Virus record (IMG/VR): IMGVR_UViG_3300045454_000087
Length of the DNA stretch: 35,207 nucleotides
From: a virus
Strand: one strand, 5' to 3'
The notes beneath the pieces were generated by a model. The model was not told the origin of the DNA. It ran no database searches and saw nothing but the letters and a program-made list of their open reading frames with translations. A program made the translations under genes and the position numbers. Position 1 is the first letter of the stretch. Every line of letters begins with the position of its first letter. Shown here in pieces: positions 944 through 35,024 of the stretch.

Positions 944-1843
944 ATGCAAAATAAACTACAGCGGATTTTTGTTAAAGACGTTGTCCAAAAATTCATGATG
1001 GCCAAAGAGTCAGAGGGGTTAGCTTCCGGATCTCTACGCTTTTATCATCAGAAACTGGAACCATTTATAGCATTTTGTGAAAAGTGTGGCTGCCCAGAAA
1101 TACTCAGTATTGAGGGGGATTTGATTCGGCAGTTCTTGCTGAGCTTGCATGAAAAGCATTCACCTGGCGGTGTTCATTCGTTTTTTCGTGCTGTCCATGC
1201 TCTGTTCACCTGGTATGATACTGAGTATGAGGGGGAGAATTGGCGCAACCCCATATCCCGAATCAAAGCTCCCAAAGTGCCTGAAGAAATATTGGACCCT
1301 GTTTCAGAAGATACGGTTCGAGCGTTAATAAGAACTTGTAAGGATGATTTTTACGGCGTTCGTGATAAAGCAATTTTGTTATTGCTGGACAACACCGGAT
1401 TACGCGCCTCAGAACTATTAAATCTTGATCTTGACTCTGTAGATTTACCTTTATCGGTTTTATATGTTGAAAGGGGAAAGGGCGGCCATCCACGGGCAAT
1501 AGATTTTAATCGAGAGGTGAAACGTTCCCTGCGATCATATTTAAAACAACGGTTATCAACTGACACTTACGCTTTTTTCATTAATCGATATGGTGAAAGA
1601 TTGACGTATGACAATTTACGCAATATGCTAGCGCGGCGAGCCAAATGTGCAGGTATTTTTCCACCTACATTGCATTCATTTAGGCGCAAACATGCGCTTG
1701 ATTTGCATCGAGCCGGAGAATCATTATTGACTATTCAACATCGATTAGGGCACAGGACTGACCGGGTATTGAAGAGATATATAAAACTTACTCGTGAAGA
1801 TATGATAAAAAGTGCCCGCAGATTGAAAAAGGCTATCCGATAA
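944..1843 (+). CDS. int: Tyrosine recombinase / phage integrase (XerC/D-like)
   Basis: Catalytic-domain signature: TGLRASELLNL (Arg I), HSFRRKHA (H-x-x-R) and LGHRTDRVLKRY (His...Tyr). N-terminal SAM-like core-binding region. The ORF is open from 833, but that extension only reads through the tRNA fragment. ATG 944 (or 914) is the likely start. Confidence 0.9.
   Translation: MQNKLQRIFVKDVVQKFMMAKESEGLASGSLRFYHQKLEPFIAFCEKCGCPEILSIEGDLIRQFLLSLHEKHSPGGVHSFFRAVHALFTWYDTEYEGENWRNPISRIKAPKVPEEILDPVSEDTVRALIRTCKDDFYGVRDKAILLLLDNTGLRASELLNLDLDSVDLPLSVLYVERGKGGHPRAIDFNREVKRSLRSYLKQRLSTDTYAFFINRYGERLTYDNLRNMLARRAKCAGIFPPTLHSFRRKHALDLHRAGESLLTIQHRLGHRTDRVLKRYIKLTREDMIKSARRLKKAIR
1100..1110. repeat. 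Iterated palindrome ATACTSAGTAT, perfect copy
   Basis: ATACTCAGTAT followed by TGAGGGGGAT. It lies inside int and is read as ILSIEG. Confidence 0.95.
1218..1228. repeat. Iterated palindrome ATACTSAGTAT, perfect copy
   Basis: ATACTGAGTAT followed by GAGGGGGAG. It lies inside int in a different codon phase and is read as DTEYEGE. Confidence 0.95.
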
Positions 1844-1860
1844 TTACTATCCGATAATTA
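1833..1860. repeat. Tandem 14-bp duplication CTATCCGATAATTA x2 spanning two convergent stop codons
   Basis: Read directly: 1833-1846 equals 1847-1860. The first copy holds the int stop (TAA 1841-1843). The second holds the stop of the minus-strand gene (CTA 1847-1849). Confidence 0.9.
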
Positions 1861-2470
1861 TTACTTGAAATTCCCCGCCTGGCGGGATAAATGTTATCTC
1901 CAAATAAGGTCTCTGTGCTACCGTGCTGTGTTCGCGACTCGAAAATTGATAGCGGTCGTTCAACTCCGTGCGCATCCTCAGGATGTACCCCTCGTACACG
2001 ACTGAGCCATTGACGATGTTTTGCAGATCGGTGATGCCCGCCGCCACAAACGCTATCGGTTTCCATCCCACCGCCTCGGTCGCCGAAAATGAGCGGCTGC
2101 CCAAAACCGTGTTGACAAAATCGGTTGTGGTCGAGCCACAACCCGCAGTGCCCCAGTTGACGCCCGTGCGGGCGATGTTCCAGGTCGCTTCCATCTCGAC
2201 CCACGGGCGGATGACACGGAAAATGTCCATTGTGCGGGCATTGTCGGACGCCTCTACATCCATATGTAAATGCAGTGTGGCCGACTGAATTGTTGATCCT
2301 GCAGGAACATGAGTCAAAATATCAAACCAAATCAACGATCTAGACAGCCACCCCGTACCGGCTGTCGATTCACCAACACGTAAACCGGTAAAACTCCCGT
2401 GATTACCTGTCGCTTCATGTTGATGAATATCGGTGTCTCTCCCAGGACTAATGTTGACCGTTACCGTCAT
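1847..2470 (-). CDS. DNRLRE-like domain protein (last gene of fibre cluster; carbohydrate-binding type accessory)
   Basis: Pattern ...SRSLIWFDILTHVPAGSTIQSATLHLH...IRPWVEMEATW...NWGTAG resembles the DNRLRE/CBM-like domain. It has a 4-nt overlap with the upstream fibre gene. Confidence 0.5.
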   Translation of the reverse strand: MTVTVNISPGRDTDIHQHEATGNHGSFTGLRVGESTAGTGWLSRSLIWFDILTHVPAGSTIQSATLHLHMDVEASDNARTMDIFRVIRPWVEMEATWNIARTGVNWGTAGCGSTTTDFVNTVLGSRSFSATEAVGWKPIAFVAAGITDLQNIVNGSVVYEGYILRMRTELNDRYQFSSREHSTVAQRPYLEITFIPPGGEFQVIIIG

Positions 2471-3078
2471 GTGCGCCTCACTACCAGAACGAGCGTGACC
2501 TGCTGGATGGTCGCCACCGAGTCCACGTTGAACGCTAAAATGTCACCTGCAGCAAGCGTTTTTGTCCAGCCGGTAAGAGTAGTATCCTGTGACTTTTGCG
2601 CGCTGCTAAGCGTCGGCTTGGCTGTACTGCAAATTGAATCAGTTACTGTTGGCGGAGCATTACTGTAAGTATCACGCCAAATGTCCACCACAATCGAGCC
2701 CGATATATTCGCTAATAGCGTGACACGCTCGATCTCGCAGTTGTACGGTATTTCCAGAAAACCCTTGATGCCGGTGGTGATGACCACCGAACCATTGCCT
2801 AAAATGACATTGATCGTTGAGCGAATAATGAGGTCGGGCTCATTTTCCAATATAGTTACACGTCCATTCAAAGCAGCAATATCAGTATGGGCAGTATCTA
2901 TGCCAGTCTCGATATTATTCATTCGAGCAGCCGTAATTGTAGTGCCCGCCTGCACAATAGCAGGGACAAGCTGCAACACAGTATCTGGCAATAGTGTATT
3001 CCCACTGACATCCTTGATGTGATATGTCTCATCGCCAGCCAAAATTTCATCGACCCAGGTAGTCTTTGTGTAAGGCAT
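2467..3078 (-). CDS. Tail fibre protein (paralogue of 4371-4961)
   Basis: The N-terminus MPYTKTTWVDE...ITAARMNNIETGID parallels MQKQYVKTNWIDE...ITATRLNNLENGVD of the other fibre gene. It lies in the tail-fibre cluster. Confidence 0.6.
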   Translation of the reverse strand: MPYTKTTWVDEILAGDETYHIKDVSGNTLLPDTVLQLVPAIVQAGTTITAARMNNIETGIDTAHTDIAALNGRVTILENEPDLIIRSTINVILGNGSVVITTGIKGFLEIPYNCEIERVTLLANISGSIVVDIWRDTYSNAPPTVTDSICSTAKPTLSSAQKSQDTTLTGWTKTLAAGDILAFNVDSVATIQQVTLVLVVRRT

Positions 3079-3094
3079 AAGCGTTACTCCACTC

Positions 3095-3514
3095 TTATGA
3101 TAAGCGCATAATGAATACCAGCTTAATGTGCCGGTTCAGATTCGATGCTGCTCCGGTTTGCCCGATCCCATGCCGGTGTGCGCCGCCAGAATACACCAGG
3201 AAACCAGCGTCATGATTGTGATTAGCAGCGCGAAAGACATTCGTCCCAGACGGGCCTTTATCAGCAGATACACCTGAATTCGACCACGAATGAAGTACCG
3301 AGTGAACATGCGCTCCATTTTCGCTGGTGGCATTGGTTGGATAGGTATGCGTGTGTGTAGCAGCCCCTCCGGTCGTTTTCAATTCTCCGTCATTGGCAGC
3401 GCCTTTCGGCATCCTGCCGCGTATATCGGGTGTGCCATTCTGTCCATCACACAACACCCAACCTAACGGGATATCCGCGTTTCTCCAGGCAATGATAGTT
3501 CCTATTTCAAACAT
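3095..3514 (-). CDS. Tail-collar-like fibre module with four G/A-x-H-x-H motifs
   Basis: IPLGWVLCDGQNGTPDIRGR (tail-collar-like P-x-GW-x-CDG...D-[IL]-RG), followed by ATHTH, GAHVH, ANHNH and GAHRH. Confidence 0.6.
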   Translation of the reverse strand: MFEIGTIIAWRNADIPLGWVLCDGQNGTPDIRGRMPKGAANDGELKTTGGAATHTHTYPTNATSENGAHVHSVLHSWSNSGVSADKGPSGTNVFRAANHNHDAGFLVYSGGAHRHGIGQTGAASNLNRHIKLVFIMRLS

Positions 3515-3516
3515 CT

Positions 3517-34161: not shown

Positions 34162-34172
34162 ATACTGAGTAT
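34162..34172. repeat. Iterated palindrome ATACTSAGTAT, perfect copy
   Basis: CCTCCTCCCCTCT-ATACTGAGTAT-GTGGGAC. It is intergenic, just downstream of the cro-like gene. Confidence 0.95.
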
Positions 34173-34178
34173 GTGGGA

Positions 34179-34469
34179 CTATTCGGTTTGCAATATTTCT
34201 CGCCCAATGGCGCTGGCGGGCTGGTACAAATTGGGCTTGATCGCTGCCAGGCAGTCAAAGGCGAAATCGCCGCGCCAGTCACGACATTTGAGCGCAAGCG
34301 TCATCAGAAACGAAAAATCGGGAGTGTTGATACCATCTTCCCAGTTTTTCACGGTCATGTAGGAAAGGGATTCACCTTGGATATTTTCAACAAGAACTGC
34401 AGCAAACTTTCTCAGGCTGAGCTTTTTGGATTTGCGATATCGGGATACGATTTGTTGGGTAGATTTCAT
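34179..34469 (-). CDS. Cro-like HTH (XRE family) early regulator
   Basis: LSLRKFAAVLVENIQGESLSYMTVKNWEDG (HTH_XRE pattern). It is the first gene of the minus-strand early operon and is divergent from the repressor gene. Confidence 0.65.
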   Translation of the reverse strand: MKSTQQIVSRYRKSKKLSLRKFAAVLVENIQGESLSYMTVKNWEDGINTPDFSFLMTLALKCRDWRGDFAFDCLAAIKPNLYQPASAIGREILQTE

Positions 34470-34494
34470 GTATGCTCTTTATAGGTAACTGGAA

Positions 34495-34549
34495 TTACTA
34501 AACGTAACTATGGTGACATTATAATAACAAACAGTGTCCAACCTGTCAA
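34495..34549. promoter_or_regulatory. Divergent, overlapping early/repressor promoters (genetic switch)
   Basis: Minus strand: TTGACA (34549-34544), a 17-nt spacer, then TATTAT (34526-34521). Plus strand: TATAAT (34520-34525) with a weak -35 (TTACTA 34495-34500). The two -10 hexamers overlap in ATTATAAT. The spacer contains TGTCCAACC (34535-34543), identical to an iteron variant at 23301. Confidence 0.5.
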
Positions 34550-34565
34550 GGGGTATTTACACAAA

Positions 34566-35024
34566 ATGTTCTATTGCTATACTTATGTTGTGACGAAAGA
34601 TAACTTGCGTGAATGGTTCAGACAAAAATATTTCTACTGGGAGCAAAATATCCATCAGGATCGAGGGTCGATTAAAGAATTTGCAGCTTATCTGGGAATT
34701 GGACGTACATATCTAACAATGCTTATGAATGGCACCCGCCAAAATATAAGCATGGAAACCGCTCTGCGGATTGCAGAACGGCTGAATGATTATCAAATAC
34801 TGAGTATTTTAGGATATGCTCGACCAGGTAAACAATTAATTGTTGATCATTTTCCCCTTGATTTTGGAGAACGTCTTACCCGGGCTACAGAAGAAGTAAA
34901 TCGCACATTCGCCGAACGTGGAGTAACTGGGGAAATGCCTGCGGCAGAAAAAATTGCAGTTGAAATTTTTGAGAAATGGGGTTTTAAATACATTTCAACT
35001 AACAGTGAGGATGAAGGATCATAA
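34566..35024 (+). CDS. CI-like repressor candidate (XRE-family HTH)
   Basis: IKEFAAYLGIGRTYLTMLMNGTRQNISMETALRIAERL (HTH_XRE). It lies on the same strand as int and is divergent from the cro-like gene. Confidence 0.65.
   Translation: MFYCYTYVVTKDNLREWFRQKYFYWEQNIHQDRGSIKEFAAYLGIGRTYLTMLMNGTRQNISMETALRIAERLNDYQILSILGYARPGKQLIVDHFPLDFGERLTRATEEVNRTFAERGVTGEMPAAEKIAVEIFEKWGFKYISTNSEDEGS
34797..34807. repeat. Iterated palindrome ATACTSAGTAT, perfect copy
   Basis: ATACTGAGTAT followed by TTTAGGA. It lies in the CI-like repressor gene (QILSILG). Confidence 0.95.

Follow-up and report, generated by a model that had tools for sequence, protein, structure and literature searches.

Short sequences repeated along phage genomes have been described in several forms. 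Cluster O mycobacteriophages carry 17-bp dyad repeats (TGTTCGGNNNCCGAACA), with 34 copies in Corndog, whose function is unexplained (PMC4351075), and phage tf and the LUZ24-like phages have localised nick sites at 5′-TACT/RTGMC-3′ (PMC3517423). Primases read short oriented template sequences, with zinc-binding domains taking part (PMC2910064). Here we analyse the viral sequence IMGVR_UViG_3300045454_000087, 35,207 nucleotides in full (the window), in which an earlier note made from the sequence alone had pointed out a highly iterated palindrome, ATACTSAGTAT, with a G-run flank. We find the palindrome to be a composite of two overlapping oriented units, whose occurrence among phages tracks the gene for one family of PrimPol proteins and which may be the priming signals of this enzyme. 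A literature search returned no paper with the motif as such.

A palindrome composed of two oriented units

All 18 perfect copies of ATACTSAGTAT were recovered at the coordinates that the earlier note had listed, against 0.02 on average, and never more than 1, in dinucleotide shuffles of the window. With up to two mismatches allowed, 34 matches were found where 6.5 are expected, and no copy in the window has A or T at its centre. The five copies with one mismatch (4543, 5923, 10750, 28783 and 31421) were likewise borne out. The more degenerate copies stood only in part: those at 12987–12997 and 23099 carry two mismatches each, the one placed at 14168 is a perfect single 8-mer (14172–14179, minus strand), the one at 33845 is a TTACTCAGT variant, and the one at 183 did not appear even with two mismatches allowed.

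The copies had been said to be read in all three codon phases, with selection acting on the DNA itself and not on a peptide, and both statements hold. Sixteen of the 18 lie in coding sequence, where they are read as xT[EQ]Y (ten copies), ILSI (five) or YSV (one). Codon-preserving shuffles gave a mean of 3.1 palindromes, the two fixed intergenic copies included, and a maximum of 7, compared with the 18 observed. Of 17 places at which the peptide would permit the motif, 16 have it. It is therefore the DNA, and not the peptide, that is kept.

In alignments of orthologues (40–70% amino-acid identity), the motif mostly replaces aligned residues with no insertion or deletion, as at sites 10115, 17023, 19649 and 24213; gaps adjoin a few sites (5234, 19172 and 22706). 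Certain sites are intact though neighbouring synonymous positions vary, and others are confined to one lineage. As far as these alignments indicate, the unit arises in place by point substitution, changing amino acids as it does so. A tiny mobile palindromic element of the REP or MITE kind, inserting into genes, might be imagined from the many copies and from the extended imperfect palindrome of up to ∼27 bp, but it is scarcely credible. The copies are not insertions when compared with empty orthologue sites, most comparisons showing replacement and the three gaps lying only beside their sites; the spacing of the C-run varies, and no transposase is associated.

The nature of the unit emerged from relatives chosen by VapE homology alone, and not by the motif. 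Among these the density of the palindrome ranges from 0 to 0.93 per kb. An alternative palindrome was sought in the motif-poor relatives and none was found; the search led instead to an asymmetric 8-mer, ATACTSAG, in which the palindrome-free relatives are still rich (∼0.7 per kb, 14–15 copies per ∼21 kb). Relative L188 has 15 such 8-mers, 14 of them ATACTSAGC, and L184 has 14 copies, whilst in the L182 group half are palindromes and half single units. The palindrome consists of two overlapping inverted copies of the asymmetric sequence 5′-[C-run]-N0-6-WTACTSAG-Y-3′. In the window there are 46 8-mers, made up of 18 palindromes and 10 single units, against 1.24 expected from composition and 9.7 after codon shuffling.

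The base preferences of the unit can be written 5′-[CCCC]-N0-6-(A>T>C)TACT(G>C)AG(T/C)-3′, with a spacer of 0 to 6 nt between the unit and the C-run. Of 341 distinct single units, 256 have G and 85 have C at the centre, and 86% have T or C as the following base. With 1.3 Mb of phage DNA taken as control, ATACTGAG is enriched 29-fold, ATACTCAG 12.6-fold and TTACTGAG 13.9-fold; the remaining one-mismatch variants reach at most 4.5-fold, and a centre of A or T is not enriched. CCCC is found within 12 nt upstream of 12% of the single units, compared with a background of 2%, whereas GGGG downstream (3.8%) is near background. The G-rich flanks of the palindromes are genuine, with GGGG within 12 nt in 12 of 36 flanks against a background of 1.5%. 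Since single units have the upstream CCCC and not the downstream GGGG, the ‘G-run flank’ is the C-run belonging to the opposite-strand unit. The earlier description thus stands as to the palindrome and is recast as to its make-up: a striking palindrome can be the by-product of two overlapping oriented signals. The suggestion of a binding site for a dimeric protein is weakened, because the palindrome is a composite of two asymmetric units of 8–9 nt.

Units in the window fall on both strands, 25 in the sense orientation and 21 in the other; the gaps average 1.4 and 1.7 kb and do not exceed 4.5 kb. Single units show an excess on the sense strand, 61:26 in a first set and 193:148 in an extended set (p = 0.017). 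This distribution bears on whether the units could be sites of a phage nicking system such as those of T5, the phiKMV-like phages or tf, which we hold to be distinctly unlikely. The resemblance to tf is considerable, for its site is a phage-specific motif of the same 9-nt length and similar density (14 sites in 46 kb, ∼0.3 per kb), and both sequences have TACT, followed by a purine in tf and by S in the window (PMC3517423). However, the sites of tf, T5 and the phiKMV-like phages all lie on one strand, and for tf the nicks themselves have been shown (PMC3517423), whereas units here occupy both strands and overlap. Nicking at the 18 overlapping inverted pairs of the window would yield double-strand breaks. 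In addition, the only HNH gene of the window (30730–31422) is absent from relatives, and no nickase gene co-varies with the motif.

Association with one PrimPol family

Our conclusions on association rest on samples that were not chosen by the motif; motif-selected loci were set aside, and most loci are partial contigs. A locus was called enriched at ≥0.24 units per kb. For loci with a full-length homologue of the window PrimPol, gathered by profile search (30–64% identity, GC content 0.40–0.64), 35 of 41 were enriched, with a median of 0.66 units per kb. By comparison, only one of 37 loci encoding other PrimPols, which match in the archaeo-eukaryotic primase (AEP) domain alone, was enriched (mean 0.071 units per kb), and only one of 62 portal relatives without this PrimPol (38 units in 1,001 kb). 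The Mann–Whitney p values are 3e-11 against the AEP-only loci and 3e-15 against the portal relatives. The statement that no annotated feature explains the motif has therefore to be withdrawn, as the motif co-occurs with the PrimPol gene (22358–23233 in the window, minus strand) in three unbiased samples of related phages. In phages of the PrimPol family the density is about 0.4–2 units per kb.

Relatives with VapE and PrimPol at 48–56% identity were all enriched, and distant ones were not. Structural relatives with other replication genes have the motif at background level even though their portal, TerL and capsid proteins are 55–77% identical to those of the window (portal 55–71%, major capsid protein up to 77%); they include L216, with a PrimPol–D5 fusion, and L224, with a DnaD-like initiator. 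Conversely, mosaics that combine the same PrimPol with unrelated structural genes carry units (the L018/L037 contig, L297 and L362/L363). The PrimPol homologue of L362 is annotated in an Anaerolineae metagenome-assembled genome, and its prophage, which shares the replication module of the window and differs in terminase and portal, has 22 units in 12 kb where 0.33 are expected. In L313 the PrimPol is the only gene in common with the window.

Other genes follow the motif less closely. VapE is not the best correlate, because it was not detected in several motif-rich loci; it and the other genes of the module are dispensable for the association, and the VapE/D5-like helicase (23813–25450, minus strand), encoded near the PrimPol gene, is a probable primosome partner of PrimPol. 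Presence/absence tables and clustering of open reading frames (ORFs) gave no early-region gene that co-varies with the motif. The 73-aa ‘WPN’ protein (p73) was rejected as a correlate since it is also present in palindrome-free relatives. One apparently negative PrimPol locus, L296, carries a shifted variant of the unit, TTACTGAGC. Subtypes of the motif are only partly concordant with the PrimPol and VapE trees.

The PrimPol protein is 291 aa long and has Pfam matches to Prim-Pol and Zn_ribbon_DnaG. Residues 1–170 match the prim-pol (AEP) domain of pRN1 ORF904 (1RNI, E 7e-12) and residues 190–291 the zinc-binding domain of DnaG (1D0Q, E 2e-7). An AlphaFold model has a predicted local distance difference test (pLDDT) score of 87.5, with linker residues 173–188 below 50, and the best Foldseek matches to it were 1RNI, 3M1M, 1D0Q and 2AU3, with NrS-1 PrimPol (6A9W) also matching. 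The predicted structure thus confirms an AEP catalytic fold and a CHC2 zinc ribbon in one chain. No full-length homologue was found among GenBank phages.

The gene itself carries one of the more telling sites. The palindrome at 22706–22716 lies in the disordered, hypervariable linker between the two domains, and a unit is kept there at the DNA level in 27 of 49 PrimPol genes, 26 times as xTE[YLF] and once in another frame (P-I-L-S). That the unit persists in a linker of such low pLDDT, and through a change of frame, is strong evidence that the constraint is on the DNA. The PrimPol gene is moreover a local hot spot, with three units in the window, among them the single unit at 23102–23109 (ATACTGAG-TTA, minus strand), and five in L362.

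As the earlier note had left open, the motif could have been either phage-specific or spread over the host, and it is phage-specific. The related prophage L196 sits next to a lactate permease gene 97% identical to one from Brevefilum sp. (Anaerolineae); its 15 units are confined to phage sequence, and the 4 kb of flanking host DNA has none. Exact 8-mers are likewise missing from 21.6 kb of Brevefilum chromosome, where one-mismatch forms are at background (22 against 17.9 expected), so that the contrast between dense prophage and empty host DNA is that of a single host lineage. A scan of 185,579 GTDB species-representative genomes, for which the query was the double-flanked palindrome only, gave 41 stretches with one copy each. 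Two scans of metagenomes with the integrase yielded no usable result, and other integrase look-ups led to unintegrated phage contigs only; distant integrase homologues on long contigs were set aside as unrelated elements without the motif.

These results decide against the HIP1-type, host-wide palindrome that had been proposed. The HIP1 palindrome of cyanobacteria (GCGATCGC) is indeed similar in its strong over-representation, its density, its frame-independence within genes (PMC5861425) and its creation in place by substitution, and the excess in the window likewise goes beyond codon and dinucleotide content and is independent of frame. But HIP1 is a property of a host chromosome and its residents, whereas the window motif is missing from host DNA and goes with a gene of the phage. 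The GTDB singletons, the empty L196 flank and the empty Brevefilum chromosome rule out a host-wide motif, no GTDB species-representative genome is enriched, and structural relatives without the PrimPol, several of similar GC content (hosts not known), are without the motif. A host-wide mutational or repair drive is accordingly a highly improbable origin for it.

The same host data bear on another idea, that the motif is a target of modification or restriction or gives Chi-like protection of injected DNA from a host nuclease. The inner CTSAG is like CTNAG-type restriction sites, with the centre limited to G or C, the G-rich flanks recall Chi, and a methyltransferase–endonuclease fusion occurs in related elements. 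Restriction targets, however, are avoided and not accumulated. Several 6-bp palindromes are in fact depleted in the window (CAGCTG, 0 against 9.3 expected; CGGCCG, 0 against 5.8; GACGTC and GTCGAC likewise zero), which suggests restriction pressure beside the enriched motif. There is no methyltransferase in the window, a Chi sequence must be common in the host, where the 21.6 kb of chromosome has no copy, and the motif does not change between phages that differ widely in GC content. We regard this idea as very unlikely, and a recombination signal, too, is less well supported.

Taken from sequence comparison, the reading to which we give an even chance is that the units are template recognition or initiation sites of the phage PrimPol, set at Okazaki-scale spacing on both strands. 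The motif co-occurs with a specific primase, and it is an asymmetric signal on both strands at that spacing. We rate a little below even the fuller version, in which a hitherto undescribed PrimPol needs the 9-nt WTACTSAGY (with a 5′ C-run) and phage genomes have been rewritten to hold about one signal per 1–2 kb on both strands, often as overlapping palindromes.

On this priming model, PrimPol would start DNA synthesis at WTACTSAGY. A site of 8–9 nt is rare by chance (∼1 per 30 kb per strand), so the genome would be selected to carry it for lagging-strand or restart priming, and selection would install one per 1–2 kb per strand. With two units overlapped, 11 bases under constraint would do for both strands the work of 16. 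Copying of the template C-run, 5′ to the unit, would give the primer a G-rich 3′ end that pairs tightly; at its variable distance the C-run would stabilise the nascent primer without itself being recognised. The zinc-binding domain would be a plausible reader, given that in T7 primase this domain takes part in sequence-specific template binding (PMC2910064). In favour of a long site, NrS-1 PrimPol was at first credited with a recognition sequence of 8 nt (PMC8718748). The cluster of units within the PrimPol gene may mark a replication origin. GC skew in the window follows gene direction, and the excess on the sense strand would fit the lagging-strand template if forks travel with transcription, an assignment that draws solely on skew and gene direction. 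Reader and signal would drift together, giving ATACTSAGT, ATACTSAGC and TTACTGAGC.

Several points weigh against priming by PrimPol. Known primase sites are of 3–5 nt, and the 8-nt recognition sequence first assigned to NrS-1 PrimPol was later reduced to GTG[A/G] (PMC8718748). The strand bias is modest, at 57% in the large set, and a dimeric protein binding double-stranded DNA would also select a perfect palindrome. Four of the 41 PrimPol loci (L307, L318, L320 and L324) have no related motif, L294 falls just below the 0.24 per kb cut-off with four ATACTSAGC in 16.8 kb, and the 3.5-kb structural part of L363 is free of units. PrimPol is often accompanied by other products of the module, such as the VWA-like p190 and the DnaJ-domain protein. 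Since the loci were gathered by homology, the mosaic cases control for shared ancestry only in part; the link with PrimPol is correlative throughout, and there is no cultured relative.

The main alternative is that the units are double-stranded DNA sites for another phage protein, be it a stoperator-like repressor acting as a roadblock or an architectural or partition-type protein, with the palindromes binding a dimer. The palindromic form dominates the window, the phage is temperate and encodes helix-turn-helix (HTH) proteins, and the 34 dyad repeats of the Cluster O phages were assigned to a dimeric binder by the authors who described them (PMC4351075). The density, the intragenic scatter and the sense bias of the single units resemble stoperators (PMC4351075; PMC9283540). 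The stoperators of Cluster A phages are 13-bp asymmetric sites of the L5 gp71-type repressor; they too number in the tens across a temperate phage genome, are biased in orientation relative to transcription and co-evolve with their reader. However, stoperators match the operator of the early promoter, sit in short intergenic gaps and almost all have one orientation. The window differs in each respect, with no unit serving as switch operator, 16 of 18 palindromes intragenic and an orientation only 57–70% sense.

The switch region in question is the 96 bp at 34470–34565, which has GTAAC-type repeats and no ATACTSAG unit. It separates a 96-aa Cro/CI-type HTH gene (34179–34469, minus strand), to which the called plus-strand ORF at 34173–34484 is antisense, from a divergent 152-aa HTH_3 protein (34566–35024). 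No regulator gene tracks the motif by its presence, and placement upstream of early genes is not conserved in relatives. The motif also stays constant across PrimPol relatives that differ in their early regions and in GC content (0.40–0.64), and many lineages have single asymmetric units only. Binding by another protein is in our estimation unlikely.

Sites and gene content of the phage

The first and last 127 bp of the window (1–127 and 35081–35207) are identical, which is typical of an assembly (k-mer) overlap, the true genome being a circle of 35,080 bp. The window is a complete circular temperate siphophage, and its host is probably a member of the Anaerolineae (Chloroflexota). GenBank phages include no near match, and tRNA and Rfam family searches of the window found none. 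Among the structural and lysogeny genes are those for a tyrosine integrase, TerL, an SPP1-type portal and minor capsid protein 2. The replication and recombination module encodes the PrimPol, the VapE-like helicase, a VWA-like protein and a DnaJ-domain protein, together with a PD-(D/E)XK exonuclease, a Sak4-like ATPase and an ERCC4 nuclease.

Palindromic double units are spread over these genes. The integrase gene has two, at 1100–1110 (ATACTCAGTAT, in the ILSI phase with a G-run to the right) and at 1218–1228 (read as DTEY and conserved in L107 and L205). The unit at 5234–5244 has a C-run to the left and a G-run to the right, the one at 32461–32471 also has both runs, and the one at 10115–10125 keeps all 11 nt in six of nine orthologues at ∼60% amino-acid identity. 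Two are found in the gene for minor capsid protein 2 (15481–15491 and 17023–17033), two in that for TerL (19172–19182 and 19649–19659, the latter directly preceding the ATPase domain), and two in the VapE-like gene (24213–24223 and 25308–25318). Further copies lie in the gene for the Sak4-like ATPase (29703–29713, YSV phase), in the HTH_3 repressor-like gene (34797–34807), and at 9739–9749 and 26382–26392. The intergenic copies are at 10954–10964, with a stop codon on one side and a terminator-like hairpin on the other, and at 34162–34172, immediately 3′ of the 96-aa HTH gene.

Single units on the minus strand, besides the one in the PrimPol gene, are at 4546–4553 (ATACTGAG-TAC), 10271–10278 (ATACTCAG-GAA), 12990–12997 (ATACTCAG-CAG), 14172–14179 (ATACTGAG-CTG), 17379–17386 (ATACTCAG-AAG) and 28786–28793 (ATACTCAG-TGT); on the plus strand they are at 5923–5930 (ATACTGAG-TGT) and 10750–10757 (ATACTCAG-CAT). 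The near-palindrome ATACTGAGTAA at 31421–31431 combines ATACTGAG on the plus strand with an overlapping TTACTCAGT on the minus strand, and has C-run and G-run flanks. Variant units are present at 7372–7380 (TTACTGAGC, minus strand, a variant enriched 13.9-fold), 18434–18442 (TTACTCAGT, minus) and 33845–33853 (TTACTCAGT, plus).

A near-palindromic unit overlaps the start codon of the HNH endonuclease gene (30730–31422, minus strand), which lies within the recombination module, is missing from all relatives and is probably a mobile insertion. The gene for minor capsid protein 2 (14908–17085, minus strand; 725 aa) has its Phage_min_cap2 domain interrupted by a stretch with a weak Intein_splicing match, and relatives align only outside this stretch. 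TerL (18494–20287, minus strand) has an N-terminal extension of ∼190 aa with a weak match to Terminase_2 (small subunit), and may combine the small and large terminase subunits in one protein.

Within the ORF at 26418–27167 (minus strand), positions 26605–27075 form a 45-bp tandem repeat of 10.5 copies, encoding a strongly basic 15-aa repeat (RQANRQRLAEYRRSY-like). The 249-aa product has CxxC pairs flanking the repeat at both ends and no homologue in relatives; it may bind nucleic acid. Upstream of 33980–34066, preceding the first early gene (that of the 73-aa ‘WPN’ protein), is a CAGTTATCCGG-like element conserved in three diverged relatives, the equivalents in L037 and L173 included, and this is a candidate early promoter or operator.

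Two observations concern the relatives. In Brevefilum sp. GCA_050953525.1 (L199, 6474–9502), an N6_N4 methyltransferase is fused to an Mrr/NA-iREase1 nuclease and adjoins a 279-aa integrase, in the same lactate-permease attachment region as prophage L196; a similar fusion is present in a related phage contig (L195, 1733–3277). L324 (IMGVR_UViG_3300037518_000230), whose PrimPol is 30% identical, has 10 copies of GCGATCGCC, which is HIP1, in 18 kb and no ATACTSAG, and is probably a cyanobacterial element.

Comparison with primase sites and dispersed repeats

T7 gp4 recognises 5′-(G/T)(G/T)GTC-3′, NrS-1 PrimPol 5′-TTTGGTTA-3′ and GTG[A/G], and pRN1 ORF904 GTG. Like these primase sites, the window unit would be an oriented signal in single-stranded DNA, read, as we propose, by a primase with a zinc-binding or helix-bundle domain and needed repeatedly along the genome. 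In both cases bases 5′ of the core would be copied into the primer, and the G-rich template flank of T7 sites has its parallel in the C-run. The window core differs in its length (8–9 nt instead of 3–5 nt), in being visibly selected genome-wide and in its frequent doubling into a palindrome.

If priming by PrimPol is correct, this would be the first long replication-priming signal that visibly shapes a viral genome, and a primase specificity long enough to support a genome-wide signal that prevails over protein coding. A PrimPol that reads a specific sequence could then be useful in targeted priming or amplification, and the motif could serve as a marker to assign orphan contigs to this type of replication, in phages apparently of Anaerolineae.

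As a phenomenon, the closest published analogue is the 17-bp dyad repeat of the Cluster O phages. There, as here, a phage-specific palindrome with invariant arms is dispersed through the genome, absent from hosts, partly intragenic and not tied to promoters. The Cluster O repeats differ in having 7-bp arms and a 3-bp spacer, in being mostly intergenic and in clustering at one genome end, and neither an asymmetric single-unit form nor a link to replication genes is reported for them. The window motif adds a further form to the known dispersed phage repeats. Such phage-specific repeats, among them the palindromes of Cluster O and the nick motifs, have lacked an explanation for decades, and here one of them is tied by comparison to a single gene family.

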